Assembly: GCA_035906055.1 (NCBI GenBank)
Contig: JAMIFV010000013.1
Location: forward strand, 2,535 to 66,534
Direction: 5' to 3'
Source: Alphaproteobacteria bacterium
GTDB taxonomy: Bacteria > Pseudomonadota > Alphaproteobacteria > Rickettsiales > JABCZZ01
Length of the DNA: 64,000 bases
Notes under the pieces: generated by a model
What the model saw: the letters and a program-made list of their open reading frames with translations, nothing else
Database searches by the model: none
What the model was told of the DNA's origin: nothing
Shown here: positions 1,182-56,097 of the stretch, piece by piece
Position numbering within the stretch: position 1 is the first letter of the stretch
Layout of the letters: every line of letters starts with the position of its first letter
Translations under genes and position numbers: made by a program

Positions 1182-1196
1182 CACAGGCGATGTACC

Positions 1197-2776: not shown

Positions 2777-2821
2777 AAGCAAACATTATGCAAGCTTGTT
2801 GATATTAATTACCCTGTCACT

Positions 2822-3154: not shown

Positions 3155-3174
3155 ATTGGCGATTCCTGAAACCG

Positions 3175-3516: not shown

Positions 3517-3827
3517 ACTCGCCCCACAATCGCATAAGTTGGTGATCGGGCTGTTTGTAAACCGTAACAAGACGGTCACGGCGCTTTCGGCCAAAGACCT
3601 ATTATATAACGCCGTCAGCCCGACCGCATGGGTCGAGAGACGGCATCACTTCACGGCTGATGCTATTGCCGCTTGTTAAGAGGTTACAAAGCCCCGCAAG
3701 CGCCACTGCGCACTTGCAGACGAAAGCATAGGTAGAATCATATGGAAGTCAAACATAGTCTGATCGCATATAGAAACTTGTTTGCCATACAACTCTAACG
3801 GTAATAAGGTTATGACATTTCACAAAT

Positions 3828-6299
3828 ATGGAGATGACATTGTCCGTAAAAGATTTAGTAACGCCAATTTCCACGGTTGAGAAAGGCAACACATTTCGAG
3901 AACATGTAGCCAGAGTATTTAGTGCTGCTGGATGGGAAGTGGAAGCTACAGAATATAGGGCAGGTCACATCAAAGCCGATGCATTATGCTGGAATGTTAC
4001 CAATTCATTTGGCAGTACTTCCCGTCTTCTTGTGGAAGCAAAAGATTACAATGGCACTTTATCAAAAGATGAATGTCATAAATTTATAAATAATTACCTT
4101 CCACATGTAGGCCGGGGCACAGACAAATACGGAGAAGCTTGGTTAGTTTCCAAAGGCCCGATAGCGCCAGATGCACGAGAAATGGTGAATTCTAATCTTG
4201 GATTATATGCAATGGATTTTGTTACATTGCAGCGCCGTTTATTTAATGTAGATCGACTCATAGAATTGGCCGTAAACGAATATCGCAGAGAAGACATTGA
4301 TGGCTGCTTCATTCCCCCTCACCTTGTAAATGGCAATAGTTTACGCGAGCGGGTAATAAATTGGCTAGAAGAAGCTCGTGCAAAACCCCTTGCAATTATC
4401 GGAGCATATGGAACAGGAAAATCTACGTTTTCCTTACATTTAGCCGCATTCTTGGCCGAGCAGTCAAAACATGACCCCTGTAAACGTGTGCCTATCCGGA
4501 TTCCGTTAGCAGAAGTATATGATGAACAATCAATGGATGGGTTATTCGGAAAATTACTTGCTAGCCAGAATCGAATTCCAAACTATCACTTTGATCTGTT
4601 TTGTGAATTAAACGAAGCTGGACGTTTTGTCTTAATCTTTGACGGTTTTGATGAAATGAAGCACGGCATGACCATACAAACATTTGAACGTAATGTTAAT
4701 CGACTGCTATCTCTTGATAAAGGCAATGCAAAAATAATCATTCTTGGGCGTGACACTGCTTTGCATGACGAGCATGAATTCCGTTCAATAATTGATGGAG
4801 TGAAGCGTACCAGCAATGGAAACAATGTGCAGGTAGAAGGAAGACGGGCTTTTGAACCCCTTTTGCTTCGCGATTTCTCCGTACAAGAAGCACATGATTT
4901 TGTTCGCAGGTTCTTTCCTGTCCAAGCGCATAAAGTTGCAGAGGGAACTCACCCACTCACAGAAGAATGGATATCGACCAGAATTACTGAACTTACATCA
5001 GGCACCTTAGATGAACTGCTTGTTCGCCCTGTCCATGCCAGAATGTTATGTCAAGTGGCCACGCAGGATTCCGTAAATTTGAAACAACTTACGCGTTTTG
5101 ATTTATATGATTTATTTGTTCACCACCTGCTGGATCGTGAAACAAGAAAAAAAGTTCGGTATGATGGCTTTGACTTGGATTGTCGCAGATATTTTAATGG
5201 GGCGATTGCTTGGTGGTTGTGGGCATTAGGGGGGGCTTCTACCACTACTCTTGCCGATATTCCTGATAACCTGCTTAAAGAATCCACCAAAGGTATTCAG
5301 CATAGTTTTGCGGAACCCGAGTTACGGCGCGAACTTGCTGCAGGATTGTTGGTCGAGAAGAGAGAAGGTGAAGTTATTTATTTTGCGCATCGCTCTATTC
5401 AGGAATTTCTTGTAGCCGAGCATCTTATTAAAACCAAATTATTGCAAAGCACTGGCGCAGGAGCGCCAGATTTACGAAAAATCCTACCTCTCATGAACGA
5501 GGTGGTTCTGGACTTTCTGAACCAACATTTGGATAAGGATGAAACTGGCGTAGAACGTAAGGAATGGGTCGCGCTTTTAAGCCGACTGCTTGGCTCCGAT
5601 ATTACTGTATCTTGGTTGGAAGTATTCCGTAGGGCTGTGACCGGGCATGAAGAATTAATTGAAACTGCACCAGCCGCTTGGCAACCCGTATTAACTTTTC
5701 TGGCTGCAAACGGCGTTAGTGATTTACACATCCGTACAAACCCTGCAGCAGCCACTATCGAGCTATTGTTAGATAAGTTGGCTCAAACAAAAGCACTATC
5801 AGTACAAGCATCTATACTGATGTTGGCCGCTCGGGTAGCCCAAACAACAGAAAAGGTGGCAACATTAGTGCCGCGTCTGATAGCACGCTGCCTTCCCGCA
5901 CAAGCCATTGCGAAAGTTACGACAGAATTCAACAATAACAGAGCAAAAAATTACCGCTCCCATATTTTAAGAGACGAAAATGTGCCTTTCTGGACGTTCT
6001 TACGTTCGGTTGGTCTTGAAAGACAGAATACTGGTGAATGGTACTTTTTTATCGATTTGCGGAAGATTGAAGACGATATGTCGGAACTGGCTGGTTATAG
6101 TTTTACACGATCAGGCACACCACCAGCACCTGTAACAGTTAGCGAAAAGGATGTACGAAACTTTTTTCCATCAGGTGAGAACGGCAATATCATCAAACAA
6201 TTTGTGGCAAATGCTGAATTGCGAAAGCATGTAAGTCCACTGATTGTCCAGACAACTCCTAATAAAGAGAAAATGTCACTCAAAAATCATAAAAACTAA
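3828..6299 (+). CDS. STAND NTPase: N-terminal Mrr-like PD-(D/E)xK nuclease domain + NACHT NTPase + helical C-terminal region
   Basis: GNTFREHVARVF..IKADALC..LLVEAKDY is restriction-endonuclease-like. Walker A is GAYGTGKST. NACHT-type Walker B is FVLIFDGFDEM. HRSIQEFLVAEHL is a winged-helix motif. About 400 aa of helical C-terminus follow. Confidence 0.8.
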   Translation: MEMTLSVKDLVTPISTVEKGNTFREHVARVFSAAGWEVEATEYRAGHIKADALCWNVTNSFGSTSRLLVEAKDYNGTLSKDECHKFINNYLPHVGRGTDKYGEAWLVSKGPIAPDAREMVNSNLGLYAMDFVTLQRRLFNVDRLIELAVNEYRREDIDGCFIPPHLVNGNSLRERVINWLEEARAKPLAIIGAYGTGKSTFSLHLAAFLAEQSKHDPCKRVPIRIPLAEVYDEQSMDGLFGKLLASQNRIPNYHFDLFCELNEAGRFVLIFDGFDEMKHGMTIQTFERNVNRLLSLDKGNAKIIILGRDTALHDEHEFRSIIDGVKRTSNGNNVQVEGRRAFEPLLLRDFSVQEAHDFVRRFFPVQAHKVAEGTHPLTEEWISTRITELTSGTLDELLVRPVHARMLCQVATQDSVNLKQLTRFDLYDLFVHHLLDRETRKKVRYDGFDLDCRRYFNGAIAWWLWALGGASTTTLADIPDNLLKESTKGIQHSFAEPELRRELAAGLLVEKREGEVIYFAHRSIQEFLVAEHLIKTKLLQSTGAGAPDLRKILPLMNEVVLDFLNQHLDKDETGVERKEWVALLSRLLGSDITVSWLEVFRRAVTGHEELIETAPAAWQPVLTFLAANGVSDLHIRTNPAAATIELLLDKLAQTKALSVQASILMLAARVAQTTEKVATLVPRLIARCLPAQAIAKVTTEFNNNRAKNYRSHILRDENVPFWTFLRSVGLERQNTGEWYFFIDLRKIEDDMSELAGYSFTRSGTPPAPVTVSEKDVRNFFPSGENGNIIKQFVANAELRKHVSPLIVQTTPNKEKMSLKNHKN

Positions 6300-6322
6300 T
6301 CGCCTATGGAGCATATAAGCAT

Positions 6323-8629
6323 TTGTTGAATATTATAAAAAACCTTTTTCTCAAAACAAAAGAAAGTAGCGATTCGGTTGCTGAACCAACGTGCGTATCT
6401 GCTCCCCTAAAAGACACCGCACAAAATTTTGACTTCGATTCTGACCGCCCCATACATTCAATCGATCAGGACAGGCTTGGATTTGGCGCGATTGCGGAAA
6501 AACTGGCAGTATCTGTACTTAGTGCCAGTGCCAGCGAAGGGCTAGTCATAGGCATTGAAGGAAGTTGGGGATCGGGAAAATCCAGCATCCTGAATTTGCT
6601 ATGCCAAAATATTGAGAAGCATACAAAAGATGCCACAGTAATCAGGTTTGAGCCGTGGGTGGTGGGCGACCGTGATAATATGGTTGCTACACTCCTTACT
6701 GATTTGGCAACCGCAGTTGCCCGGCTTGATCGCGCAGAGAAAAAGACATTAAGTAACGATACGAAGGCTGCCATTGGATTATCAAAAACATTACGCAAAT
6801 ATGCTGCAAAAACCGGAAAAGGCATATCCCCTCTAATCAAATTCGCGTCCGTTTGTGGCATTCCTTACACTTCGCTCGTTAAAGACGGTTTGGATGCTGC
6901 CGTGGATGCTATGGAGGTAAAGGAAAAAAATACGCCCTTATCCTCACAAAAGCAGGAACTGGCAAAGGAATTGCGCGATTTCAAGCACAGGTTCATAGTG
7001 GTTATTGATGACATTGACCGCCTGGAACCGGCCGAAGCGGCAGAGATTGTGAGGCTTGTAAGGGCAGTGGGCGATTTTCCCAATATTGTTTACCTGCTGT
7101 GTTATGACCGCGATGTTTTGGCGCACAGTTTGGAAAACGCTATCGAAGTAATTGATGGCAAGGCATTCTTGCAAAAAATCGTTCAAATCAGCTTTCCAGT
7201 TCCCCGGCCGGAAGAATTCGATTTGCGCCGTTGGTTCTTTGAAGAATGCACCAACCTGCATTCGGTAGTGATAGGACAAGAATTGGGTAAGGAAGTTTCG
7301 GAACGTCTTGCAGCTGTTTGTGATACACAGGGGCAGTTGCTGCAAACTCCGAGGGATGTAGGCCATGTTGTGAATGCGTTGCGGCTTGTTTATCCGGCCA
7401 TAGCAAACAACGTGGATTTTGCAGACCTTTGCTGGCTGCAGATACTACGCCTTAAAAACGATGCCGTGTATAAATGGGTTGAAGAATACCTTAACGTCTT
7501 TGCGGCAGTGAAAATAGACCGCGCCAGTGTGAATGAAGGCGAAGAAGCAGCCCTAACAGATAGATTGGGCAAGCTGTTGTCGGATACGACAATAAGCACT
7601 TCACCACACTCTGTCTGGTATTTTGGGCAATACATTCCCGGTGTCGTACAAGGTAGTATGGGAGATTTAAGAGAAATTACAGTACTGCAGGAAGTTAATG
7701 AAGACGAACTTATTGAACTAGAAAGAAATAACAGGTTGGGAAGCCCACATCATTATCGCCTGTATTTTGCATTTTCCCAACCCGCCGGAACCTTGCATGA
7801 CACAGAATTAAGCACGCTCATAGATAATGCTGATAATGGCATAAGCATTGTTGACGAGCTTGAACAACTTGTGGATAAAAAGCGCCCGCAGGGCGGGACT
7901 ATGTATGAAGTGATGCTGGACAGGATAAAACGCATACCTGCCGGACAGTTATCACTGCAAGCAGCCCAAGTTATTCTTTCAGCGATTGGTGATACGGTTG
8001 ATAGGGCGCAGCATAATGAAAGAGAAGCAGGATTTTTTGGAAGAAAGCTGGTTTGGCATAATGCAAAAACAGTTTTCAGCGGAGTGCTTAAAAGAATCGA
8101 CACCAATGACAGAAAAACTTTTCTCGATGATTTCTTCACAAACCGCAAATCCATAGGATGGTTACTGGCGGAGATTATTGGAGACGAACTCTTTGCGCAT
8201 GGTAGAACTGGCAATAATACGCATAATTACGACAAAACCTTGCTGACCAAAGACGAGCTTGATGTTGTGATAAAAATTATGTTCTCGCGCTTGGCAGGTA
8301 CGGATCGCGACAATATTATTGGAGTGCCAAGTTCCGTGGAGTTTTTCTATCGCTGGCATCAGGCTGGCGGTGATGCTGATTTGAAACGATGGATGGATGA
8401 ACAATCGCAGACGGATAAAGGCTTCCTGACATTAATGGGAAAATGCCGGGGATGGGCTGCTTCTGGGAAAGAAGTGTACCATCCCCTGAACAAGCGCGAT
8501 TTACAAGTGTTTATGGATTTTGATCAGGCTGTGAAACGACTGCAAAGCATTTCGCAGGATATAAATAAGCCTGCCGAAGATCGGCATTTAGCAAAGGAGT
8601 TGCTTGAAGCTGTGCGTATCCGGGATTAA
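6323..8629 (+). CDS. KAP-family P-loop NTPase
   Basis: LVIGIEGSWGSGKSSILN is the Walker A. FIVVIDDIDRLEPAEAAEIVRLVRAV..VYLLCYDRDVL is the KAP signature. TTG start lies 24 nt after the NACHT gene stop. Confidence 0.8.
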   Translation: MLNIIKNLFLKTKESSDSVAEPTCVSAPLKDTAQNFDFDSDRPIHSIDQDRLGFGAIAEKLAVSVLSASASEGLVIGIEGSWGSGKSSILNLLCQNIEKHTKDATVIRFEPWVVGDRDNMVATLLTDLATAVARLDRAEKKTLSNDTKAAIGLSKTLRKYAAKTGKGISPLIKFASVCGIPYTSLVKDGLDAAVDAMEVKEKNTPLSSQKQELAKELRDFKHRFIVVIDDIDRLEPAEAAEIVRLVRAVGDFPNIVYLLCYDRDVLAHSLENAIEVIDGKAFLQKIVQISFPVPRPEEFDLRRWFFEECTNLHSVVIGQELGKEVSERLAAVCDTQGQLLQTPRDVGHVVNALRLVYPAIANNVDFADLCWLQILRLKNDAVYKWVEEYLNVFAAVKIDRASVNEGEEAALTDRLGKLLSDTTISTSPHSVWYFGQYIPGVVQGSMGDLREITVLQEVNEDELIELERNNRLGSPHHYRLYFAFSQPAGTLHDTELSTLIDNADNGISIVDELEQLVDKKRPQGGTMYEVMLDRIKRIPAGQLSLQAAQVILSAIGDTVDRAQHNEREAGFFGRKLVWHNAKTVFSGVLKRIDTNDRKTFLDDFFTNRKSIGWLLAEIIGDELFAHGRTGNNTHNYDKTLLTKDELDVVIKIMFSRLAGTDRDNIIGVPSSVEFFYRWHQAGGDADLKRWMDEQSQTDKGFLTLMGKCRGWAASGKEVYHPLNKRDLQVFMDFDQAVKRLQSISQDINKPAEDRHLAKELLEAVRIRD

Positions 8630-8789
8630 TAAATACCGCAACGGATCGAAAGCCTTCAAAGTAATACTATCATTACATTATGTGGGTGAAATTGCGGGTT
8701 AAAGCACAGTTCATTGTGCTGGTAATGTTTGGATTATAAAGTGTTAGCCTCTAATTGTGAATGCTGGCACCATGTAGGACATAGGACAT

Positions 8790-8862
8790 AGTGATGTGTA
8801 TATTGCACTTCTTGAAAACCTCCCTGTTTTCGCCTCGCTGCAGCGAAACTATGAACAGGCTC
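8790..8862. repeat. family-B repeat, copy B1. The right half is clear and the left half is degenerate.
   Basis: ...cttgaaaacctccctgttttcgcctcgctgcagcgaaactatgaacaggctc aligns with 19885-19940. Confidence 0.6.
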
Positions 8863-8920
8863 TAATATCAGGGGCAATAAAAAAGCTTACTCCTCTGTAA
8901 ACTATGCTTATAATGGCCGC

Positions 8921-9775
8921 ATGGACATTAAACATTTCTTTGACAGCGATACTGCCACCTTCACCTATGTGGTGAGCGACCCTTCCACCGGCAACTGCGC
9001 CATCATCGATTCCGTGCTCGACTACGACATGGCGTCGGGCAGGACGTCCACACGTTGCGCCGATGCGGTGATCGCTTATGTGAAAGCGCAGGGGCTGGAT
9101 GTGCAGTGGATACTGGAAACGCATGTGCATGCAGACCACCTGACCGCGTCGCATTACCTGAAGGAACAGCTGGGTGGCAGGATCGGCATCGGCGAGCATG
9201 TGAAGGACGTGCTGGCGTACTGGGTGCCGCTGCTGAACAACGGGCATGACACCCCGCTCGACGGCTCGCAGTTCGACCACCTGTTCAGGGAAGGCGAAGT
9301 GTTCGCCATCGGCAGCATTCAGGTGAAGGTCATCTACACGCCTGGCCATACGCCCGCCTGTGTATGCTACCATATGGGCGAAGCGGTGTTCGTGGGCGAT
9401 ACCATCTTCATGCCCTATGTGGGCACGGCGCGCACGGATTTTCCCGGCGCCAGCGCGGCCACGCTCTATAACTCCATCCAGAAACTCTATGCGCTTTCCG
9501 ATAACACGCGCATCTATGTCTGCCATGATTACCCCAGGGAAGGCGACAAGGAACAGTGCTTCACCACCATCGCCGAAGAAAAGAAGGCCAACGTGCTGGT
9601 GCATCAGGGCATAGGCAAGGCGGATTATGTGCAGACGCGCAATGCGCGCGACGCGGGTAAACCGGTGCCGCGCTTGTTGCTTCCCTCATTGCAGGTGAAC
9701 CTGCGCGCGGGCGGATTCGGCAAGCCGGAAAGCAACGGCGTTCAGTATATAAAGATCCCGGTCGATAAAGTGTAA
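8921..9775 (+). CDS. MBL-fold metallo-hydrolase
   Basis: THVHADH metal-binding motif. N-terminus FTYVVSD...CAIIDSVLDY is typical of the glyoxalase-II-like family. Confidence 0.85.
   Translation: MDIKHFFDSDTATFTYVVSDPSTGNCAIIDSVLDYDMASGRTSTRCADAVIAYVKAQGLDVQWILETHVHADHLTASHYLKEQLGGRIGIGEHVKDVLAYWVPLLNNGHDTPLDGSQFDHLFREGEVFAIGSIQVKVIYTPGHTPACVCYHMGEAVFVGDTIFMPYVGTARTDFPGASAATLYNSIQKLYALSDNTRIYVCHDYPREGDKEQCFTTIAEEKKANVLVHQGIGKADYVQTRNARDAGKPVPRLLLPSLQVNLRAGGFGKPESNGVQYIKIPVDKV
9727..9757 (+). repeat. direct repeat copy 1 (3' end of the MBL gene, encodes ESNGVQYIKI)
   Basis: About 26/30 identity with 11225-11255. The mismatches fall at synonymous third codon positions. Confidence 0.7.
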
Positions 9776-9810
9776 TTGTTTAATGGCATCGGGGGTTATC
9801 CCCGCTACCA

Positions 9811-11196
9811 TTGCCCGGCTTGCATACGCAAGCATACGTAACGAACGCAAGGATAACCGTAGTGAAGCTCGTAAATGCCCTCCCCGATCGTGACGTTTCA
9901 TTGCCTGCGGTTGAGCAGCAAAGAACCGCAGAGCCTGCGCCGGTGGATAAGGAAGCATTAGAAGCTATTGAGCGCGGCGACCGTATCGTTGTCATTCTGG
10001 GGCGGGCGGGCACCGGTAAAACCACGCTTATACGCTCTGTCATGGAGAACAGTTCTGTTAACCAGGTTGTTGTAGCGCCGACCGGTGTTGCGGCTGTGAA
10101 TGCAGGTGGACAGACCATTCACTCTTTCTTCCGTATTCCCCCGCGGCTGCATAATTTGTCTGAGATACAGCCCCGCAAGGGCGGTGGCCGATTATTCAAG
10201 AACCTCAAGCGGGTCATCATAGATGAAATTTCCATGGTGCGTGCGGATCTGCTGGATGCGGTGGACTATGCCCTGCAAATAAACCGCAAAGACCAGCGGC
10301 CCTTTGGCGGGGTGCAGATGGTGCTCGTGGGGGATTTCCTGCAATTGCCGCCTGTTGTGCGCGGTGATGAAGAGAGTATTCTTTCCGGCAAAGGATATGA
10401 AACCCCGTTTGCCTTCAGCGCAAAATGCCTGCGCAACAATCCTGTTACGTCCATAGAGCTTTCCAAGGTGCACCGGCAGGATAACCCTGACTATATCAAC
10501 CTGCTGGGCAATCTTCGTTCCGGCAATGAACTGGAGGCCACTATCGATGCTTTTAACGCCGCTTGCCTGGGGGGGCACAAACGCGATGCAGCTCCGATTA
10601 TTTTAACCGGTACAAATGCGGTGGCAGATAAACACAATGCCCTGGGATTAAACAGCTTATCCGGTGAAACAACCATTTATGAAGGCGCGATTGAGGGTGA
10701 ATTCAAGTTAGACAAGGACAAGCTGCCCGCGCCTGAATTGCTCGCCCTGAAAGCGGGCGCACGCATCATGATGGTAAAGAACGATATAGCCAGAAACTGG
10801 GTAAACGGTTCGCTTGGAACGATCACCCGTCTGGGAAAGGACCGTGTCTGGGTGAAAATAGACGGTAAAGAGCGGCAGTTCGAAGTTGGAAAGGCGGGGT
10901 GGGAAAATGTTCGTTATGAGTGGGATGAAACCACCCAGCATATTGAAGCAAAAGTGGTGGGCAGCTACTCGCAGATTCCCGTTATACCCGCCTGGGCTTT
11001 AACCATACATAAAGCGCAAGGGTTGACGCTTGAGAATGTGCGCATTGATCTGGAGCGCGGTGCTTTTGTTTCCGGACAGGCATATGTTGCATTGTCCCGG
11101 GCGCGTTCTTTAGAGGGGCTTTCCTTTGCATCCCCGCTCAGGGTTTCGGATATTATCATTGATGCACGGCTGCTTCCCAAAGCACGGCATGATTAA
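9811..11196 (+). CDS. Pif1/RecD-like SF1 helicase (AAA_30/PIF1 family)
   Basis: ILGRAGTGKTT (Walker A), VIIDEISMV (Walker B), LVGDFLQLPPV, TIHKAQGLT, AYVALSRARSLEGL. The start is uncertain: TTG 9811 or GTG about 9860. Confidence 0.8.
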   Translation: MPGLHTQAYVTNARITVVKLVNALPDRDVSLPAVEQQRTAEPAPVDKEALEAIERGDRIVVILGRAGTGKTTLIRSVMENSSVNQVVVAPTGVAAVNAGGQTIHSFFRIPPRLHNLSEIQPRKGGGRLFKNLKRVIIDEISMVRADLLDAVDYALQINRKDQRPFGGVQMVLVGDFLQLPPVVRGDEESILSGKGYETPFAFSAKCLRNNPVTSIELSKVHRQDNPDYINLLGNLRSGNELEATIDAFNAACLGGHKRDAAPIILTGTNAVADKHNALGLNSLSGETTIYEGAIEGEFKLDKDKLPAPELLALKAGARIMMVKNDIARNWVNGSLGTITRLGKDRVWVKIDGKERQFEVGKAGWENVRYEWDETTQHIEAKVVGSYSQIPVIPAWALTIHKAQGLTLENVRIDLERGAFVSGQAYVALSRARSLEGLSFASPLRVSDIIIDARLLPKARHD

Positions 11197-11224
11197 GGCA
11201 TAATTAAAGAAATGGGGGGGGCTG

Positions 11225-16511: not shown

Positions 16512-16543
16512 TTCTAAATGGTGCCGTAGTAGGGGAGCAGAAA

Positions 16544-16563
16544 GGGGGGAAGCGTTCCCCCTC
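16544..16563. repeat. family-A terminal hairpin module, solo, directly downstream of the efp stop
   Basis: ggggggaagcgttccccctc resembles ggaggggaaacgctttcccctc at 39718. On the minus strand a T-run follows it, which is terminator-like. Confidence 0.5.
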
Positions 16564-16574
16564 AGATTTTAAGC

Positions 16575-17138
16575 CTACTTCGCGCGCTCTACGTACGAAT
16601 TCTCGGCGGTATTCACCACGACGCGGGTGCCTGTTTCAATGAACGGCGGAACCATGATGCGCACACCGTTGGTAAGGATGGCGGGTTTGTAGGAAGACGC
16701 CGCCGTCTGGCCTTTCACCACGGGTTCGGTCTCGGTGATCTCCAGGATAACGCTGGGCGGCAGGGCCACGCTGAGCGGCTCGCCTTCGTAGGATTCGATC
16801 ATCACATTCATGTTTTCCTGCAGGTAGGGCATGCCGTCGCCGACCATGTCTTTGCTGATATGGATCTGTTCGTAATTTTCGTTATTCATGAATACCAGCA
16901 TGTCGCCTTCTTCGTATAGGTACTGGTATTCTTTCTGGTCGAGCTGCACGCGTTCGACCTTTTCGTCGGAACCGAAGCGGTAATTGGTCTTGGTGCCGGT
17001 TTTCACGTCTTTCATTTCCACCTGGTTGAAAGAACGCAGGTTGCCGGGGGTGCCGATCTTGATGTTGGTCACCAATACTAACCTGCCATTATATTCAAGC
17101 ACCATGCGGGGGCGGATGGCGGAACCGTCGATCTTCAT
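16575..17138 (-). CDS. efp: elongation factor P
   Basis: Full-length EF-P-like sequence: MKI.G..IRP..VLEYNG.L..V, ...VFMNNENYEQI..., ...YKPAILTNGVRIMVPPFIETG. Confidence 0.9.
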   Translation of the reverse strand: MKIDGSAIRPRMVLEYNGRLVLVTNIKIGTPGNLRSFNQVEMKDVKTGTKTNYRFGSDEKVERVQLDQKEYQYLYEEGDMLVFMNNENYEQIHISKDMVGDGMPYLQENMNVMIESYEGEPLSVALPPSVILEITETEPVVKGQTAASSYKPAILTNGVRIMVPPFIETGTRVVVNTAENSYVERAK

Positions 17139-17221
17139 AAATAGCCTCTTTCAAGAGTGTTCTGGTGTAATTCGGGGGCGCAAACTATCAGAATGGGCTG
17201 TAATTGCAATTTTATTAAGAA

Positions 17222-17318
17222 GGGCGGGCCGCCCCTCTTGCCTCCGGCAATTCATCCCTGCGAGGCCGGAGCCCACGCTCCTCCATGCCTATGGCGTAGC
17301 GGGGGAGGGACGCCCCCG
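17222..17318. repeat. family-A GC-rich palindromic element, copy A1
   Basis: gggcgggccgcccc ... ccctgcgaggccgg..cgctcctccatgcctatgg ... gggacgccccc. Confidence 0.65.
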
Positions 17319-18101: not shown

Positions 18102-18817
18102 GAGACTGCTTCAAAATTCTGCCACGCCTTGCCGCCGCATTCGCCGCGCTATGTATTTCTTCCGTTGCCCATGCGCAGGAGCCTAAACGCCCCACTGTAG
18201 TGGAACTGTTCACGGCGCAGGGCTGCCCGTCCTGTCCCAGGGCAGACAGCATGCTCAAGGACATATCCCAGCATCCTGACTATTTCCCGCTTTCCTTCCA
18301 TGTGACTTATTTTGACGGGGAAGGCTGGAAAGACCCTTATTCTTCAAAGGAAAACAACCTGCGCCAGCGCCGCTACCTGCTGGCTGTGGGCATAAAAGAG
18401 GCCTTTACGCCGCATTTCGTGGTGGACGGCACTATATCCTCTGCGGGCGGGGATGCCGGTTCGCTTGCCAAGGCGATAAAGCAGGCGCAGAACATCGCGC
18501 TGCAGTTTCCGCTTACCGTTAAGGCCGATCAGGCAGGTAACGGGCTGCATGTGACTATCGGCGACGACAAGAACTTCCTGCCAGCCGATGCCGTGCTGTA
18601 TGAGGTGCATTTCAAGAGCAGCACCGTTACGCCCATCCGCGCAGGCGGCAATTCGGGTATTACGTCCGAAAACGTGAATAACGTGCTTTCCTTCTTCAGG
18701 GTGCCGCTTTCCACGCAATATTATGTGCCGATGAGCCGCGTGACCGGCGACGGGGTGGCGTATCTGCTGCACAACAAGGAAGGCCGTATAATGGGTGCGG
18801 CTTATTATATAAAATAA
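18098..18817 (+). CDS. DUF1223-family secreted thioredoxin-like protein
   Basis: Signal peptide. VVELFTAQGCPSCPRAD ... HVTYFD. ATG 18098 overlaps the upstream TGA (ATGA). The ORF track starts at 18080. Confidence 0.75.
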   Translation: MRDCFKILPRLAAAFAALCISSVAHAQEPKRPTVVELFTAQGCPSCPRADSMLKDISQHPDYFPLSFHVTYFDGEGWKDPYSSKENNLRQRRYLLAVGIKEAFTPHFVVDGTISSAGGDAGSLAKAIKQAQNIALQFPLTVKADQAGNGLHVTIGDDKNFLPADAVLYEVHFKSSTVTPIRAGGNSGITSENVNNVLSFFRVPLSTQYYVPMSRVTGDGVAYLLHNKEGRIMGAAYYIK

Positions 18818-18997
18818 ATGGGGGGCACGCTGCCCCCGATTTCGTTCCACGAAATCTCCCCTGCGAGGTCGTCGTGAAGCACTCCTCCGCGCATACGGCA
18901 CCGAAGTTTATTCCAGAGCTTAGCCGTAGGTATGGAGGAGCGAAGCGACGACTCCGCAGGGGAATTTATGCGGAGCATAAAGGGGGCAGCGTGCCTC
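18818..18997. repeat. family-A GC-rich palindromic element, copy A2 (full, two inverted halves)
   Basis: The left arm tcccctgcgaggtcgtcgtgaagcactcctcc pairs with the right arm ggaggagcgaagcgacgactccgcagggga. Terminal hairpins are ggggggcacgctgccccc and gggggcagcgtgcc. It starts 1 nt after a stop codon. Confidence 0.8.
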
Positions 18998-19003
18998 TCT
19001 TAA

Positions 19004-19807
19004 TTAGCTTTGCATCGCTAAATAAGCGAGCAAAGCCCCGCCCAGCGCGATGCGGTACCATGCGAACAGCGTGAAGCCGTGGCGGCTGATGAAGCCCACG
19101 AACCATTTGACCACCAGAAGCGCCGTGATGAACGCGGTTATGAACCCCACGGCGATGAGGGCGAGGTCGTCGCTGCTGAATTCCTTATAGGCCTTCAGCA
19201 GGCTGTAGGCGGTGGCGGCGAACATGGTGGGGATAGCGAGGAAGAACGAAAACTCAGCGGCGGCTTTGCGCTCAACGCCCAGCACCAGCGCGCCCATGAT
19301 GGTAGCGCCGGAGCGGGAAACGCCGGGGATCATGGCGATGGCCTGACAGAAGCCGATAAGCAGGGCGCGCGTGAGCGGCAGGTCATCCAGCGAAGTGATG
19401 ACGGGCACGGGCTTCCATTTCTCAATGGCGAGGATGACGATGCCGCCGATGAACAGCGTGGTGGCGACCACCGGCACGCTGAAAAGGTGCTCGGTAATGG
19501 TTTTGTGAAACAATACGCCCAGCGCCATAGCCGGAAGGAAGGCGGCGATAATGTTAATGGCGAAGCGCTGTTCGGTCTTGCTTGAGGGTATGTTTTTTAT
19601 GGTAGTGAGCAGTTTACCGCGATAGAGCCAGCAGATGGCAAGGATGGCGCCAAGCTGGATGCTGATCTCGAACACCTTGCCCGGCGGGCCTTTGAAATCG
19701 AGAAGCGTTTCCATCATCACCAGATGCCCGGTGGAGGAAATCGGCAGAAACTCGGTAAGGCCCTCGACGAGGCCCATGATCACAGCATCTAAGAGCCTGC
19801 TCATCAT
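19004..19807 (-). CDS. uppP: undecaprenyl-diphosphate phosphatase
   Basis: VEGLTEFLPISSTGHL, ...PGVSRSG..., multi-TM protein. Confidence 0.9.
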   Translation of the reverse strand: MMSRLLDAVIMGLVEGLTEFLPISSTGHLVMMETLLDFKGPPGKVFEISIQLGAILAICWLYRGKLLTTIKNIPSSKTEQRFAINIIAAFLPAMALGVLFHKTITEHLFSVPVVATTLFIGGIVILAIEKWKPVPVITSLDDLPLTRALLIGFCQAIAMIPGVSRSGATIMGALVLGVERKAAAEFSFFLAIPTMFAATAYSLLKAYKEFSSDDLALIAVGFITAFITALLVVKWFVGFISRHGFTLFAWYRIALGGALLAYLAMQS

Positions 19808-19940
19808 ACTCTCTCTACTGCTGCCTGCTGCAAACAGTGACTTTCTGCGATCCGCTACTCATGTACTGACGTGTACACTGCATTGCGGTTCTCAAAAATC
19901 CCTGTTTTCGCTTCGCCGCAGCGAGATTATGAGCAGGCTC
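19793..19940. repeat. family-B MITE-like element, copy B3 (full length, perfect 12-bp TIR)
   Basis: The left end gagcctgctcat (19793-19804) is the reverse complement of atgagcaggctc (19929-19940). The core is ctcatgtactgacgtgtacac. Confidence 0.8.
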
Positions 19941-19948
19941 TAGCATAA

Positions 19949-24799: not shown

Positions 24800-24831
24800 G
24801 ATATTTATTCTTTCACTGCGTTGCCGTATAA

Positions 24832-24898
24832 GTGGAGTAGTCTTACACTACGACCCCGCGTAGCGAGGGGGAGCGGTAGCGGGGGCGGTACGCCCCCC
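24832..24898. repeat. family-A element, partial copy A3
   Basis: gtggagtag..acgaccccgcgtagcgaggggg ... gggggcggtacgcccccc. Confidence 0.5.
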
Positions 24899-24918
24899 TA
24901 ATCAAATAAGGAGCATTT

Positions 24919-25671: not shown

Positions 25672-25704
25672 GCTCTAGTTGGCGAGATTATGAACAGGTT
25701 CTTA
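25672..25704. repeat. family-B terminal fragment, copy B5
   Basis: ggcgagattatgaacaggttcttag matches the right ends of B1, B3 and B6. Confidence 0.5.
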
Positions 25705-25714
25705 GAGATAAAAT

Positions 25715-26977
25715 CTATTTTGCAGTAATCCTAAGAATCTTATCGGCATTCTGATTTATCAGCGCATGTATTCTTTCATAGACGGAAGAGTAAAGTTTCT
25801 GTGCGGTCAGCATGTCTATGAGCTTATGCGATAGTCTGGGCAGGGAAGATGCAAGTTTTATTAGCCGGGTACGCAGGTAAGGCATGCCTATGCCTGTTTC
25901 TTCAGCCATTTTTATCCAGTCACGATAAATGATTCGATCATGCAGATAAGCCCCCCCGATCTTCATGGCTACTTTTGTACTGAGGGCTGGATAAATGTGA
26001 GTAGAAAGCAAATCATAGAAAGGTGCGAGTATTAACCCGTTCTCTGCATGAAGAAATGAGAAATTCTTGCCATGCGCATCTGTATTGCCAATTAAATAAT
26101 TAAAAATCACAATGTCTGTCATTCGTAAGCGGTCTTTGGCGGGCTGAATGCTATAAGACTTCAACAAATCAAAGCATTGGGCCAGCGATGGCCCCCCTTC
26201 GCTCTGGTATTTTCTTTCGGGGGAAACTCCCAATGCCTGACAAAAATCTTCTTGATGGATACGAATAATTTTTCCTTCAAGGGCAGTGCGGTCGTAGCGT
26301 TCAATCATTAAGTAAGGAACCCCGGCTGCGGTTTGCGCCGAAACATTTGGTACAGGCACCAGCCCGGACACCATCTGCGCTAGCTGCATACAGAAAAACT
26401 CATTGGCAATACTCTGATCTACGCCGTGTATTGCAGGCTTTATAATGTGTGTGCTGTGCAGAGTTTCATTTGGTAAAGAAAATTCATTATCAAAGAATCT
26501 TACGACCATTTTATTCTGTGCGCCCGCCAGCGATAATTTTAACCCGCTTAAGCCCGCTAATAATGGCCTGTTAGGAAGAACACTTATCAGTTCTGCTAAT
26601 TTTTCTTCTTTCAGGTAATAGGGGGAGGATTGCGATGTTCTGGGGGGTAATTGCCCAGCGGGATATAAGGATATAGCGCCAGCGCACTCGCGTCCCAGCT
26701 CTTCTAATAAGGCATAGTCGTTTTTCTCGGAAACACCTAATATTTTTGCCAGTTTTGCGCGTACAGCATCATCAGGTAACAGGCCTGCAAAGAATGGACG
26801 GGTTTCAGCGTCTTCAAATTTTCTCTTTTTTAAAGGCAATGATACCGAAAGAGGCTTAGGGTTCTTAGAGGCTAACCATTTCTGATTATATTCAAATGCT
26901 AGGCGTCCGCTTTCGCGTTGCCTGAGAACGCCCACTTTATTTTCAAACAGATAAACATCCAGGTTTTTATCCGTCAT
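25715..26977 (-). CDS. hipA: type II toxin HipA-family serine/threonine kinase
   Basis: LSLAGAQNKM, HIIKP, ERYDR, IHQEDFCQALG, GNTDAHGKNFSFL. Confidence 0.9.
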   Translation of the reverse strand: MTDKNLDVYLFENKVGVLRQRESGRLAFEYNQKWLASKNPKPLSVSLPLKKRKFEDAETRPFFAGLLPDDAVRAKLAKILGVSEKNDYALLEELGRECAGAISLYPAGQLPPRTSQSSPYYLKEEKLAELISVLPNRPLLAGLSGLKLSLAGAQNKMVVRFFDNEFSLPNETLHSTHIIKPAIHGVDQSIANEFFCMQLAQMVSGLVPVPNVSAQTAAGVPYLMIERYDRTALEGKIIRIHQEDFCQALGVSPERKYQSEGGPSLAQCFDLLKSYSIQPAKDRLRMTDIVIFNYLIGNTDAHGKNFSFLHAENGLILAPFYDLLSTHIYPALSTKVAMKIGGAYLHDRIIYRDWIKMAEETGIGMPYLRTRLIKLASSLPRLSHKLIDMLTAQKLYSSVYERIHALINQNADKILRITAK

Positions 26978-27244: not shown

Positions 27245-27473
27245 TGTAATCATAATATATTGATAAATAAGAGAAGACATGGAGGGTGCCTTTGATTTCG
27301 TACTACATAACGATATTTTAGAATGCAAACGCTCTATAAGTAGTCATGTGGACTTTGGAAGCCCTTCCTGCGTTCTGGCGCAATCCTCAAGAGTACCGAA
27401 CAATCTGATAATGGCTGGCGTAAGGCAGTTCCAGCAGAAAACCGGATTGTTTTTTAATCCCTCCGGGTGGATT

Positions 27474-27593
27474 CCCCGCCGCTTGCGGCGTGGAGGAGCC
27501 GAAGGCGACGACCCCTTTAGAGGGGGTAAGCGTTAGCGAAGGGGGATGTCTTCATCCCCCTTACACTTAATACCCCGCCGCAAGCGGCGGGGG
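27474..27593. repeat. family-A GC-rich palindromic element, copy A4
   Basis: ccccgccgcttgcggcg ... tggaggagccgaaggcgacgacccctttagaggggg ... ccccgccgcaagcggcgggg. Confidence 0.7.
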
Positions 27594-34676: not shown

Positions 34677-34899
34677 TTTTTGCTCCTTCTGATGATGTGC
34701 TCTGCTATCACAGCCTATATTGTGGTGCAAGCGGCACCTAATCAATAATTTGAGCCGTCGCTCTGCGTTCCCCACGCAACCGCTACCGGCCAGGTGCGAG
34801 TTGTCCACAGGCAGGATTTGCCCGTTATGCCGTAAATATTTCTATATATAGTGGTATCAATATATAAATATACTATAAGTAGTATGGAATGAATCATGC

Positions 34900-39694: not shown

Positions 39695-39856
39695 GGGGCG
39701 CGTTTCGCCCTTTATTGGAGGGGAAACGCTTTCCCCTCTGCGCATCCGCGCATTCACCCCTTGCGAGGTCGTCGCTTCGCTCCTCCATACCTACGGTTAG
39801 GCACTGGAATAAACATCGGTACCGTATGAGTGGATGAATGCTATATGACGCCCCCC
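39695..39856. repeat. family-A GC-rich palindromic element, copy A5
   Basis: ggggcgcgtttcgccc, ggaggggaaacgctttcccctc, gcgcatccgcgc, ccccttgcgaggtcgtcgcttcgctcctccatacctacgg ... Confidence 0.75.
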
Positions 39857-47713: not shown

Positions 47714-48112
47714 ATGGATAGTTTGACATTCGATCTCGTTACCCCGCAGGCAACCTTTTTCTCCGGTCAGGTGAATATGGTGGAAGCGCCCGGCACCCTT
47801 GGTGATTTCGGCGTACTGCCGGGTCACATGCCTTTCATTTCCACGTTGCGCGCAGGCATCGTCACCATTCACGACGCCCGCAACAACCAGTCCAAGCTTT
47901 TTGTGGCCGGTGGCATTGCCGAAGTGAATGCGAAGTCCTGCACCATTCTTGCTGAACAGGTCGTAGACCTCGCCACTTTCTCCCGCACCGATGCGGAAGG
48001 CAGGCTTGCCAAGGCGAAAGAAGCGGCGAACACTGCGTTCGACGATAACGCCAAGGTGGTGGCTGCACACGAAATCGAAGTGGCCGAAGCTTTATTGCTC
48101 GCAATAAATTAA
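47714..48112 (+). CDS. atpC: F1 ATP synthase epsilon subunit
   Basis: FDLVTPQATFFSGQVNMVEAPGTLGDFGVLPGHMPFISTLRAGIV. ATG at 47714. Confidence 0.9.
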   Translation: MDSLTFDLVTPQATFFSGQVNMVEAPGTLGDFGVLPGHMPFISTLRAGIVTIHDARNNQSKLFVAGGIAEVNAKSCTILAEQVVDLATFSRTDAEGRLAKAKEAANTAFDDNAKVVAAHEIEVAEALLLAIN

Positions 48113-48318
48113 AAGGGGCGTCCCGCCCCCACTCGTGCATCCGCACTCGTTCCCCCTCTAAAGGGGTCGTCGTGAAGGACTCCTGCGCGCATACGGCATC
48201 GGCTTCTATTCCAGTGCATTGCAATTGGCGTGGAGGCGCGAAGCGACGATGACGCAGGGGAATTTATGCGGAGCATAAATGGGGGCATAATTAAAGAAAT
48301 GGGGGCAGCGTGCCCCCC
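48113..48318. repeat. family-A GC-rich palindromic element, copy A6 (full)
   Basis: Begins 1 nt after the atpC stop. ggggcgtcccgccccc, cgtgcatccgcacg, ccccctctaaaggggtcgtcgtgaaggactcc ... ggaggcgcgaagcgacgatgacgcagggg ... gggggcagcgtgcccccc. Confidence 0.8.
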
Positions 48319-48331
48319 GTAAAAAATATTT

Positions 48332-49872: not shown

Positions 49873-52570
49873 TGACGATTTTCCCCGGCACCACGATGAT
49901 TTTTTTGATCTGCTTACCTGCCAGGGTATCCTGCACATTCTTCTGGGAAAGCGCAAGCGATTCGAGCGCCTCTTTGGTGGCGTCATGTGCGGCTTTGAAG
50001 GTGGTGCGCAGCTTGCCGTTGATCTGCACGGCGATGGTGATCTCATCGTCCTGACAAAGCGCGGGGTCGGCTTTCGGCCAGGGGGTGCTCAGCAAGGTCT
50101 GCTTATGGCCGAGCAGCGCCCAAGCTTCTTCGGCAAAATGCGGGATGAACGGTTCGGCAAGGCGCAGCAGCGCTTCGAGCGCTTCCTTAAGTACAGGCGT
50201 AAGAGGCGAGGAGCGGGGAAATTCCTCGTTCGTGCCTCGTGCCTCGTTTCTCGCTACTTCCTCTATGACATTGGAAAGCTCGCGGATGCGCGCGACGGCC
50301 TTATTGAAATGGAAGTTCTCGATATGGCGGGTCACGTCGTTGATGGCTTTATGGGTCACGCGGCGAAGACCAAGCGTTGCTTCATCGGTCGCGGTGGGCG
50401 TGGCGGGCTGGCCGGTGATGACGGGCGCAAGGGTCTGCACCAGTTTCCACAGACGGTTGATGTAGCGCCATGCGCCGTCGATCCCGGCATCCGTCCATTC
50501 AAGGTCGCGGTCGGGCGGGCTGTCGGAAAGCATGAACAGGCGTGCCGTATCCGCGCCATAGGTTTCGATGATATGCCTGGGGTCCACCGTATTCTTTTTG
50601 GACTTGCTCATTTTTTCCGAGCGCCCAACCGTCACGGGCTTGCGCGTAGTGACATGCACGGCACCCGCGCCTTCCTTCACCACTTCGTCGGGCTGCAGCC
50701 ATTTACCGTCAGCGTCTTTATACGTCTCGTGGCAGATCATGCCCTGCGTCATCAGGCCGTTGAAGGGTTCGTCCGGCACGTTATAACCGCAAGCTTTGAG
50801 CGCGCGCGTGAAGAAGCGCGAATAGAGCAGGTGCAGAACCGCGTGTTCCACGCCGCCGATATACTGATCCACCGGCAGCCAGCGTGCCACGGCATCGTTT
50901 ATCGGTTGCGTATCGGGCAATGAGCAGAAGCGCGCGAAATACCATGACGATTCGAAGAACGTATCGAACGTATCGGTTTCGCGTTCTGCTTTTTTGCCGC
51001 AGGTGGGGCAATTCACATGTTTCCATGTGGCATGGCGGGCGAGCGGGTTGCCGGGCGTGTCGAAGGTCACGTCTTCCGGCAGTTTCACCGGCAGGTCTTT
51101 TTCAGGCACGGGCACAGCGCCGCAATCGTTGCAATAGATGATGGGAATGGGGCAGCCCCAGTAACGCTGGCGCGAAACGCCCCAGTCGCGCAGGCGATAG
51201 TTCACCTTGGCTTCGCCCATGTTCTTTTTGGCGAGTTCGGCAACGGCTTTTTCTTTGGCTTCATCGGAGGTGAGGCCGTTGAGGAACCCGGAATTGATCA
51301 TCGTGCCGTCGCCGGTATAGGCTTCCGCGCTTACATCGCCACCGCTGACCACGGGCAAAATGGGTTGGTTATATTTTTTGGCGAAGTCATAGTCGCGCTG
51401 GTCATGCGCGGGGCAGCCGAAAATGGCGCCGGTGCCGTAATCCATGAGCACGAAATTGGCGACGAAGAGTTTTACCTTGCGGTCTTCAAACGGATGCTGG
51501 ATCTCAAGGCCGGTATCAAAGCCTTTCTTTTCGGCTTTCTCTATCGCTTCTTCGCTCGTGCCGATGCGGTTGCATTCGTCGATGAAGGCTGAGAGTTCGG
51601 AGTTCAGAGTTCGGAGTTCAGTTGCAATGGGGTGGTTAGGAGAGATGGCACAAAAACTCATGCCAAAAAGTGTATCCGGCCTCGTAGTATAAATTTCCAA
51701 TTTAATGGGGAAAACGCTTTCCCCGCCTGCGCTGCGCGCAGTCTCCCCTTGCGGGGTCGTCGCTACGCTCCTCCACGACTCCGGCGAAATCTGTAAAATC
51801 ATTTTCGCGCCGACGGACTTACCTATCCATCTGTCCTGCATGATGCGGACCTTATCCGGCCAGTTCTCCAGCGTGGAAAGTCCCTGCAAAAGATCTTCAG
51901 CGAACTGCGTGATACGCAGGAACCACTGCGAGAGTTTGCGGCGCTCAACAAGCGCACCGGAGCGCCAGCCGCGCCCTTCGATCACCTGTTCGTTGGCGAG
52001 CACGGTATGGTCCACCGGGTCCCAGTTCACGTCGGCTTCCTTGCGGTAGGCGAGGCCAGCCTTCAGGAAATCGAGAAAGAATTTCTGTTCGTGCCTGTAA
52101 TACTCAGGGTCGCAGGTGGCGAGCTCGCGCGACCAGTCGTAAGACAGTCCTATGGTCTGCAACTGTTCGCGCATACTGGCCATATTTTTATATGTCCATT
52201 CGCGCGGATGCACATTGCGCTCTATCGCGGCGTTCTCGGCGGGCAGGCCGAACGCGTCCCATCCCATCGGGTGCAGCACGTCGAATCCGCAGCCCATTTT
52301 GTAACGCGCCACCACATCGCCCAGCGTGTAGTTGCGTACATGCCCCATATGGATGTTGCCCGACGGATAGGGGAACATCTCCAAGACATAGTATTTTTGT
52401 TTGTGGGGCACGCTGCCCCCGCTCGTGCTTTGCACTCGTTCGCCTGCGGGGTCGTCGCTGACGCTCCTCAGCCCATCCGGCGAAGCTTTAAAGCTGTTGT
52501 TATCTCTCCAGAAACGTTGCCATTTCTGTTCCGACTCGCGGAAGTTATAACGTGTATTGGCATCACTCAT
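49856..52570 (-). CDS. leuS: leucine--tRNA ligase, carrying two in-frame family-A repeat insertions
   Basis: [15 protein letters not shown] (HIGH), TTRPDT (editing domain), KMSKSKKN (KMSKS). Confidence 0.95.
51705..51790. repeat. family-A half-element, copy A7, in frame inside leuS (about residues 261-289)
   Basis: ggggaaaacgctttcccc gcctgcgctgcgcgcag tctccccttgcggggtcgtcgctacgctcctcca is nearly collinear with intergenic copy A5 (39718-39790). Confidence 0.75.
52403..52485. repeat. family-A half-element, copy A8, in frame inside leuS (about residues 29-57)
   Basis: ggggcacgctgccccc gctcgtgctttgcactcgtt cgcctgcggggtcgtcgctgacgctcctca is collinear with the left halves of A2 and A6. Confidence 0.75.
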
Positions 52571-55968: not shown

Positions 55969-56097
55969 TCGTGCGGATTGTGCCGGTCAGTAACGCTGAA
56001 ACCATAGACATACAGCGGTGTATGGCTATACTTGCAGGGTCAAATGGCAAGGTAGTAATGATTGCGCATTATTACAACTGCTAAATGGGGGGCATGT

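Follow-up and report, generated by a model that had tools for sequence, protein, structure and literature searches.

A dispersed GC-rich modular palindromic repeat at gene ends and within leuS of an alphaproteobacterium

Introduction

What is a near-perfect palindrome of 180 nt doing in the spacer between two genes, where it begins almost directly behind a stop codon? The question is raised by positions 18818-18997 of a 64,000-nt stretch of contig JAMIFV010000013.1 (assembly GCA_035906055.1, an alphaproteobacterium placed in the Rickettsiales), which we analysed at full length and refer to as the window. The palindrome, here termed A2, lies between the genes for a DUF1223 protein and BacA, and an original prediction had grouped it with other GC-rich segments as Family A, a dispersed modular palindromic element that often starts right at stop codons. 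Our analysis makes it likely that Family A is a GC-rich modular palindromic repeat of the non-autonomous kind, which has spread—and is probably still turning over—in an alphaproteobacterial lineage.

Family A is assembled from hairpin-rich half-units

The alignments define a half-unit of about 90 nt, in which an A/T-rich flank is followed by three hairpins, a core, and a tail of about 15 nt finishing ...ACGGC at the 3′ end. Hairpin 1, the terminal G5/C5 hairpin, reads GGGGGGCA-CGC-TGCCCCC; hairpin 2 has a stem of 7-8 bp, variable in sequence, and a constant loop (TCC or ATCC); and hairpin 3 is CCCC-TGC-GGGG (CCCC-n3-GGGG). The core consists of TCGTCG, a mini-hairpin of 2-3 bp (GCTTCGC, GTGAAGCAC, GCCTTCGGC, and others), and CTCCTCCA. 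MAFFT alignments thus bear out the predicted module order, namely G/C hairpin, second small hairpin, and CCCCTGCG(A/G)GGTCGTCG-n-CTCCTCC. Besides this alpha type, there is a beta type of half with GCTACCGC-TCCCCC-TCTAAA-GGGG in place of hairpins 2 and 3.

Two inverted halves form a palindrome of about 180-200 nt (full copies span 180-220 nt) with terminal inverted repeats of 17-18 nt (GGGGGGCACGCTGCCCCC / GGGGGCAGCGTGCCCCCC). Inverted pairs of this kind, as had been proposed for A2 and A6 and as the alignment shows for both, also make up the metagenome copies L148, L121, and L155, while A3 and the leuS copies are singlets. A2 joins alpha to alpha; L148, L121, and L155—the best-preserved full metagenome copies—join alpha to an inverted beta. 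A truncated right end (...CGACG-CCCCC) is common to A5, where it reads ...GACGCCCCCC, and to a copy in the relative L157. Alpha halves, beta halves, and truncated right ends therefore combine in various ways, and the label 'modular' is apt. When folded, as the original prediction had suggested, A2 reached -119.6 kcal/mol compared to -64.6 kcal/mol for shuffled sequences (z = -11.3).

Twelve half-units at eight loci of the window

A covariance model (R1) was built from 44 half-units and run filter-free across the whole window. It returned ten half-units with E values from 7.5e-35 to 2.3e-11 as well as two degraded units (16515-16571 and 39813-39929), which amounts to 12 half-units at eight loci (Table 1), and gave no further match with E <0.2. 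These are the loci that had been listed from the letters, and none besides, yet some of them are now described differently. The copy reported at 24832-24898 exists, though not as a partial element: it is a complete half-unit of beta type. Likewise, a hairpin is indeed present at 16544-16563 near the efp stop codon, but it is not solitary. It belongs to an internally deleted half-unit that retains the terminal hairpin, half of hairpin 2, and the unit's 3′ end, and that lies between the efp stop codon and efp's native terminator. A1 and A5, finally, each consist of a left half plus a truncated right end, correcting the earlier listing.

Table 1 Family A copies, the stop codons next to them, and genes of the low-GC island, in window coordinates
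Feature	Position	Strand	Evidence or remark
A1, alpha half-unit and terminal hairpin GGGGGAGGGACGCCCCC	17210..17318	+	Covariance-model match 17210-17303, 62.9 bits, E 5e-21
A2 left half, alpha type	18811..18907	+	Covariance model, 100.8 bits, E 7.5e-35
A2 right half, alpha type, inverted	18915..19008	-	Covariance model, 77.3 bits; BacA by Pfam
A3, single half-unit of beta type	24815..24907	-	Covariance model, 64 bits, E 2e-21; alignment; Pfam
A4, divergent beta-like unit	27473..27593	-	Covariance-model match 27473-27570, 36.5 bits, E 2e-11
A5, extra hairpin (39695-39710), alpha left half (39710-39805), decayed truncated right end	39695..39856	+	Covariance model: left half 74.9 bits; right part 39813-39929 (-), E 1.4e-5
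A6 left half, hybrid beta-like	48104..48205	+	Covariance model, 69.1 bits; atpC by Pfam ATP-synt_DE_N
A6 right half, alpha, with 20-nt internal duplication or insertion	48213..48327	-	Covariance model, 59 bits
Mid-leuS copy	51698..51793	+ (leuS on -)	Covariance model, 75.9 bits; translation
leuS N-terminus copy	52394..52489	+ (leuS on -)	Covariance model, 73.3 bits
Internally deleted half-unit near efp	16515..16571	-	Covariance model, 22.2 bits, E 3.6e-6; sequence set against L156
22-nt fragment GGCATAATTAAAGAAATGGGGG	11197..11218		Identical to 48284-48305; Pfam for neighbour gene
Isolated element end TAAATGGGGGGCA	56082..56094	+	Direct-repeat family D17; sequence; possibly chance
DUF1223 stop and A2	Stop ends 18817; hairpin from 18820		Gap 2 nt
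atpC stop and A6	Stop ends 48112; hairpin from 48115		Gap 2 nt
ABC ATPase stop and A5	Stop ends 39683; first hairpin from 39695		Gap 11 nt
BacA stop and A2	Stop 19004-19006; element end 18999	- (BacA)	Gap 4 nt
holA-like stop and A6	Stop at 48332; hairpin end 48318	- (holA-like)	Gap 13 nt
efp stop and deleted half-unit	Stop 16575-16577; hairpin end 16561	- (efp)	Gap 13 nt
Tyrosine integrase	1661-2776		Low-GC island
NACHT NTPase	3828-6299		Low-GC island
KAP P-loop NTPase	6323-8629		Low-GC island
MBL-fold protein	8921-9775		Low-GC island
PIF1-like helicase	9811-11196		Low-GC island

Beyond the window, a further 45 copies were obtained from 39 metagenome contigs and from leuS loci of relatives. 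Could these segments share nothing except a GC-rich, low-complexity likeness—or else be a family of structured small-RNA genes? They are GC-rich and hairpin-prone, and A2 is very stable as an RNA fold. Nonetheless, either idea is scarcely credible. The ten window half-units align in register across ~90 nt, with E values down to about 1e-35; a repeat search ties 18818-18997 to several other segments, among them 48165-48284 (83% identity along 120 nt) and, in inverted orientation, 39758-39853 (also 83%); and the pattern TCGTCG-N5-7-CTCCTCC occurs five times in the window against 0.03 expected from shuffles, a more than 100-fold excess. Moreover, copies lie on either strand relative to their neighbours, within open reading frames (ORFs), and in truncated forms, they have no match in Rfam, and their pairing is symmetric across the two strands (see below). 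The shuffles and the covariance model thus support a genuine dispersed modular repeat family.

The copies occupy diverse settings. A1 fills the divergent spacer between efp (-) and a peptidase_C26 gene (+). A3 sits between the stop codon of an epimerase gene (24799) and the start of an SDR gene (24919), with its inner end facing the upstream stop codon, and A5 follows the stop codon of the ABC ATPase gene (39683), with the native terminator of an OmpA-family gene (by Pfam) on its other side. A4, whose two ends carry CCCCGCCGC-AAGC-GGCGGGG hairpins with TAT or AAT after them, lies in a low-GC spacer between HipA (-) and an ORF without assigned function (+); the gene for this HipA-family toxin kinase (25715-26977), which adjoins A4, is itself part of a 46% GC stretch. 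The 22-nt fragment at 11197-11218, correctly reported as identical to part of A6, starts directly behind the PIF1-like helicase stop codon; within A6, this 22-mer (GGCATAATTAAAGAAATGGGGG) duplicates the terminal AAATGGGGGCA.

Hairpins are conserved as palindromes on both strands

We tested four local helices for covariation across 44 copies, using 500 shuffles and controls with slid partners. Paired cells amounted to 86.7% in the observed alignment, 75.3% after shuffling, and 44-54% when the partners were slid; cells altered on both sides numbered 122, 42, and 12-20, respectively. Not one of the 500 shuffles matched the observed paired cells, double-sided changes, or covariation score. In hairpin 2, all eight pairs covary around an unchanged TCC loop, and in the mini-hairpin the second pair is T:A in 22 copies and C:G in 19. 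Hairpin 2 came in 43 distinct sequences among the 44 copies—by eye perhaps seven related types—and some of its types are common to several loci or genomes, such as TTTATGC-TCC-GCATAAA in A2R, A6R, and L148.

The mismatches reveal on which molecule this constraint acts. G:T and A:C mismatches were equally rare, with 5 versus 7 in hairpin 2 and 5 versus 12 in hairpin 1. Because G:T is as rare as A:C, the constraint on the hairpins is one of Watson-Crick palindromy, that is, on both strands of the DNA and not on a one-stranded RNA; a structure maintained in RNA only is ruled out by the same observation. Core conservation has to be judged on the window copies alone, as the pattern by which the metagenome copies were fetched fixes the core. 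In the window copies, it was clearly above that of hairpin 2. The family can reveal what selection acts on such elements, with the core keeping its sequence and one hairpin keeping only its structure.

In-frame copies in leuS and other genes

The presence of two copies within leuS (49856-52570, - strand) was confirmed, and both are in-frame insertions according to the translation and the covariance model. The mid-leuS copy encodes about 27 residues in the loop preceding the editing domain, and the N-terminal copy encodes about 25 residues immediately ahead of the conserved KxKYY motif. In an alignment of the window protein with 21 homologs, the mid-leuS insertion was not found in the closest ones, P0002-P0005 (73-84% identical), and the N-terminal site was filled in P0002 and P0003 as well, with another sequence type. 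Element-derived peptides recur in this N-terminal loop in many lineages and are read from either orientation (...DDPAGE...GGSVPP, or GGTLPP...SPAGSS...APPR). The count of LeuS insertions is two in the window and three each in L115 and L116, again with either orientation among relatives. In an AlphaFold2 model of LeuS, residues 33-55 and 273-286, which cover part of the N-terminal and the mid-leuS insert, respectively, had a predicted local distance difference test (pLDDT) score <50 and no secondary structure and lay between better-modelled strands; several other segments of the same model also scored <50, and its mean pLDDT was 73.9. Judging by this model, the inserts are probably located in flexible loops. 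The same loops carry other repeat-like peptides in the homologs P0002, P0078, and P0036 (AGCKLQ/AGCELQ; SLVVS...TNDSRLTT), and they seem to serve small repeats in general as landing sites.

In-frame copies were also present in four other long, gene-like ORFs of metagenome contigs, which by eye resemble a GltD-like oxidoreductase (1154 residues, two copies), a RarA-like ATPase, a portal-like protein, and FlhF. We left uncounted the ORFs that run across copies in L120, L126, and L154, which have the look of GC-rich artefacts. When all six frames of the 44 copies were inspected, each frame was stop-free in 25-37 copies. Hence, an open frame within a copy is no evidence of selection for coding, since every frame is mostly open; a GC-rich unit with a length that is a multiple of three is readily tolerated without special coding selection.

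These copies extend to a GC-rich uncultured alphaproteobacterial lineage the 'protein-coding palindromes' first seen as a Rickettsia peculiarity, and they show the same loops of the essential LeuS being hit repeatedly, in either orientation—a natural system for studying how proteins tolerate random insertions of 25-30 residues. In addition, the element can distort gene calls by way of spurious ORFs within copies and N-terminal extensions.

Stop-codon proximity and the question of a role in RNA

Three copies had been said to begin 1-12 nt after a stop codon, and the measured gaps behind the DUF1223, atpC, and ABC ATPase genes (Table 1) agree. The adjacency holds among relatives, too: of the 36 extragenic half-units from the window and relatives, 17 have hairpin 1 at a distance of -1 to 18 nt from the stop codon of an ORF that runs towards them and has at least 120 codons. 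Are the elements, then, kept by the host as RNA devices at gene ends, acting as bidirectional intrinsic terminators, as 3′ stem-loops that shield the upstream mRNA, or, within about 15 nt of the stop codon, as brakes that slow ribosome release and thereby tune the upstream gene? We consider this unlikely, even though several observations speak for it. Apart from the proximity itself, full elements fill convergent spacers, so that the first hairpin an incoming transcript runs into is the same from either side; a terminator-like character was flagged for two hairpin ends; and two sites are filled both in the window and in a relative with 84-92% identity. REPs (repetitive extragenic palindromes) within about 15 nt of a stop codon reportedly stall ribosomes, as Liang, Rudd, and Deutscher are said to have found in 2015. 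REPs, most of which lie <20 bp from ORF ends, have also been reported as mRNA stabilisers (PMC3733652).

Other features are at odds with such a role. Although the stem of an intrinsic terminator is there in all copies, the U-tract is not: a run of at least three T within 8 nt past hairpin 1 occurred in only 14 of 44 copies, with a mean of 2.3 T in 7 nt. Nor was there a clear orientation bias, for extragenic singlets meet the incoming stop codon with the hairpin end in nine cases and with the inner end in five. We rejected the reading as a canonical terminator on these two grounds, and the idea that the terminal hairpins double as intrinsic terminators found little support. At both efp and the OmpA-family gene, a native terminator adjoins the element, close relatives lack the element at the same gene ends, and a gene-end device is impossible for the copies in coding regions or in the divergent promoter spacer. 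Besides, G:U pairing is no more favoured than A:C. We read the position next to stop codons mainly as a result of where insertions get targeted and tolerated; a role in RNA 3′-end protection or ribosome release is possible.

Probable copy turnover among close relatives

The genome of our organism has a GC content of about 57%, and the window is at 54-60% outside a low-GC island at 1-11 kb. Run SRR18360466 contains a Logan contig with 100% identity to the window, and this contig breaks inside A2. The closest named LeuS homologs come from 'Rickettsiales bacterium' metagenome-assembled genomes (MAGs; about 63-67% identity) and other Alphaproteobacteria, while LeuS proteins of unnamed metagenome origin reach 84%. 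Three short contigs of closer relatives, L156, L157, and L158 (BacA 91%, 90%, and 83% identical to that of the window), keep the gene order BacA-DUF1223-peptidase_C26-efp and permit a comparison site by site. Between BacA and DUF1223, the window has the full A2, L157 a truncated A5-like variant, and L156 an unrelated ORF of 123 codons; in L158 the two genes overlap and the site is empty. The efp/peptidase spacer, occupied by A1 in the window, contains a ~24-nt remnant in L156 and nothing in L157 or L158. At the 3′ end of efp, the deleted unit of the window precedes the native terminator, and in L156 a unit follows the terminator. All of these site states were borne out by the covariance model. 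A further relative, L114, also has a unit just past holA, albeit with other hairpin sequences. The short-read contigs L001, L114, and L156, from our organism and its relatives, stop within a copy, and the element thus explains why assemblies of these organisms break up into short contigs.

Where do new copies land? The N-terminal LeuS insertion directly precedes the A-rich codons of KxKYY and thus hints that A/T-rich targets are preferred; with a genomic GC content of ~57%, sequence of this kind is found chiefly around stop codons, terminators, and promoters. In the mechanism that we propose, the element would be copied by a trans-acting protein encoded outside the window, an enzyme that would recognise the folded DNA hairpins together with the conserved core, as RAYT/HUH proteins do for REPINs. 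Insertions that disrupt genes would be purged by selection, and the survivors would be copies just past stop codons and copies in tolerant protein loops. Effects on the transcript—3′-end protection, weak termination, or interference with ribosomes at the stop codon—would be a side effect, which may have been co-opted at some sites.

Several points weigh against a repeat that spreads and turns over in this way. In the metagenome copies, the core is nearly invariant partly as an artefact of the pattern used to fetch them. No target-site duplication was seen at the ends of ten inspected copies, the flanks of which are merely A/T-rich. Among relatives with 83-92% protein identity, there was no strictly clean empty site with identical flanks; at that distance, some absences may be deletions and not missing insertions, and a remnant is retained at the A1 site of L156. 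Sites with a copy in the window as well as in a relative, namely the leuS N-terminal loop, the 3′ flank of holA, and the BacA spacer, differ in sequence type, which would call for recurrent insertion at hot spots or for copies converting one another. Lastly, a Pfam scan of the ~52 ORFs in the window found no transposase or RAYT; the sole recombinase is a tyrosine integrase in an unrelated island.

Could Family A instead be a classical miniature inverted-repeat transposable element (MITE), a deletion derivative of a DDE-type insertion sequence moved by the transposase of its parent? The terminal inverted repeats, a length of 170-220 nt without coding capacity of its own, and the A/T-rich flanks would be in keeping with that origin. 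We nevertheless hold it to be distinctly improbable: the ten inspected ends lack a target-site duplication, half-units missing one end and truncated forms recur at several loci and in several genomes, no parent insertion sequence turned up in the window or the fetched loci and no transposase in the window, and no plasmid or phage record matches. Spread of a non-autonomous repeat by an enzyme acting in trans remains our preferred reading.

The 19-nt core beyond this lineage

An exact scan for the 19-nt core, TCGTCGCT(T/A)CGC(T/G)CCTCCA, in one genome per species yielded at least 112 loci (L002-L113). Among the matches listed, many lie within dispersed repeats of unrelated appearance in distant phyla. 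A Sandaracinaceae MAG, for instance, has the core on at least nine contigs, beside GCGCC-TCC-GGCGC and G5/C5 hairpins, and other listed matches come from Dehalococcoidales, Nitrospinota, Saccharibacteria, Fibrobacter, Phycisphaerales, Pseudomonadales, Rhizocola, and Bacteroidales. At several listed loci, a (C/T)GTC-ATYC...GRAT stem has the core as its loop. The arrangement of end hairpins around A4 is also found in L043 (a Rickettsiales MAG) and in L055 and L112 (Geminicoccaceae MAGs), where these hairpins bracket a different conserved insert of 60 nt plus the same core; searching Rfam with five alphaproteobacterial or other loci that carry an A4-like element gave no match.

Since the covariance model scored the 19-mer loci at only 10-19 bits, we do not count these repeats as members of Family A. 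A looser core pattern brought up no extra copies in the loci from the genome collection, and a core scan of viral contigs gave four single matches, which are uninformative. Read on the opposite strand, the core includes GCGAAGC, which as DNA forms an extraordinarily stable mini-hairpin (PMC13037366). We regard the recurrence of the core across phyla, a matter of matching letters, as a lead and not as a finding. It is a long shot that the core is an ancient module of a single cross-phylum superfamily of repeats, combined with exchangeable hairpins and read by a conserved single-stranded-DNA enzyme or host factor, with hairpin 2 being renewed by fold-back (templated) copying; equally speculative is the scope of such a superfamily, which would take in Sandaracinaceae, Dehalococcoidales, Nitrospinota, Saccharibacteria, Phycisphaerales, Pseudomonadales, and other Alphaproteobacteria.

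Other features of the window

The first 11,200 nt of the window (1-11200) are a low-GC island (43-50%), in which Family A is represented solely by the 22-nt fragment at the right edge. With its integrase, NTPase, MBL-fold, and helicase genes (Table 1), this region looks like an integrated defence island. A second dispersed repeat of 49 nt, AAAAATCCCTGTTTTCGCTTCGCCGCAGCGAGATTATGAGCAGGCTCTA, is found at 8816-8864 and 19894-19942 (86% identical), with a third, partial copy at 25682-25702 and a similar intergenic stretch at about 2540-2590 of L114. The genes for the delta (OSCP; 34128-34808) and epsilon (47552-48112) subunits of ATP synthase are solitary, lie on opposite strands 13 kb apart, and share no atp operon.

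Comparison with known systems

The original prediction did not recognise a named element in Family A, and our searches are in line with this. Scanning the whole window against Rfam at the gathering threshold returned tRNA only, an E-value threshold around A1 and A2 added nothing beyond chance-level matches, and a BLAST search of A2 against plasmid and phage records gave no match. We therefore compared the element with described systems by architecture and behaviour.

Small non-autonomous palindromes such as the QMITEs of Coxiella burnetii and the Correia/NEMIS elements of Neisseria resemble Family A in that they can be situated within genes and can alter proteins or transcripts (PMC5896051; PMC10969869). 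Those elements are bounded by defined terminal inverted repeats with target duplications (TA for Correia) and contain further motifs, IHF sites for example; neither target duplications nor such motifs were seen in Family A. BOX elements (boxA-boxB-boxC) of Streptococcus pneumoniae and SPRITE likewise consist of recombining modules with stable stem-loops in the transcript, and SPRITE resembles a rho-independent terminator (PMC10969869). However, they belong to another phylum and have no reported sequence relation to Family A, which lacks a regular T-tract and is frequently translated.

REP, BIME, and REPIN sequences offer parallels, too: single hairpin units exist alongside inverted pairs, which form one long hairpin (PMC3733652), sequence types differ by complementary changes in the stem, and copies lie <20 nt from ORF 3′ ends, often between convergent genes, with occasional intragenic ones. 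REPs between convergent ORFs are <20 bp from both, their ends supply or abut stop codons, and REPs within genes, among them tRNA synthetase genes of Alphaproteobacteria, are translated into short peptides (PMC3733652). Yet a Family A unit spans ~90 nt and four hairpins as opposed to 20-40 nt and one hairpin, and unlike in REPIN/RAYT systems, there is no conserved GTAG tag in the alignment; no RAYT gene was found among the ORFs of the window.

Among the REPs, the CGTC-tagged superfamily (Di Nocera et al. 2013) is mainly alphaproteobacterial, includes the Rickettsia palindromic elements (RPEs) RPE-4 and RPE-6, and has no known transposase (PMC3733652), and it is possible, if somewhat doubtful, that Family A is a composite member of it. 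Several features would fit: a T-CGTC-G motif followed by a small hairpin and a CCA end (T-CGTC-G ... CTCCT-CCA, in columns that are nearly invariant, in the metagenome copies partly by ascertainment), the 7-8 bp stem of hairpin 2 with mostly A/T outer pairs and a loop of 3-4 nt, and the occurrence of the same 19-mer between (C/T)GTC-ATYC and GRAT arms in other phyla. As in CGTC-tagged REPs, moreover, copies of this alphaproteobacterial element are close to ORF 3′ ends, mostly where the ORFs are convergent or co-directional, or intragenic, tRNA synthetase genes included, and no dedicated transposase is linked to them (PMC3733652). In the published elements, however, a stem of 8-9 bp that begins with two A/T pairs and has a loop of 4-5 nt separates an unpaired CGTC (or TGTC/CCTC) tag from a CCA tail of 3 nt, and in Family A the stem beside the tag is the mini-hairpin of 2-3 bp; the 8-bp hairpin 2 lies ~25 nt upstream of the tag, with C-runs and not CGTC/CCA at its flanks. 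Because the 8-9 bp stem is absent and the unit is three times as long as a REP, we do not file Family A as a CGTC REP, with the published consensuses having been compared by description.

In its working, Family A comes closest to the RPEs. RPE-1 to RPE-10 are likewise dispersed palindromes of ~100-150 nt in an alphaproteobacterium (PMC10969869; PMC3733652). Like Family A, they are found both in intergenic regions and in frame within conserved housekeeping genes, where they add a peptide and leave the gene intact (reviewed in PMC10969869), and they have no known transposase. They differ in base composition, Rickettsia being AT-rich and Family A a GC-rich element of a genome with ~57% GC, and in that Family A has four small hairpins, a variable module conserved in structure only, and translation in either orientation. 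The likeness is one of described behaviour. On this comparison by description, Family A is best described as an unnamed new element of the REP/RPE/MITE kind, most similar to the RPEs in how it works.

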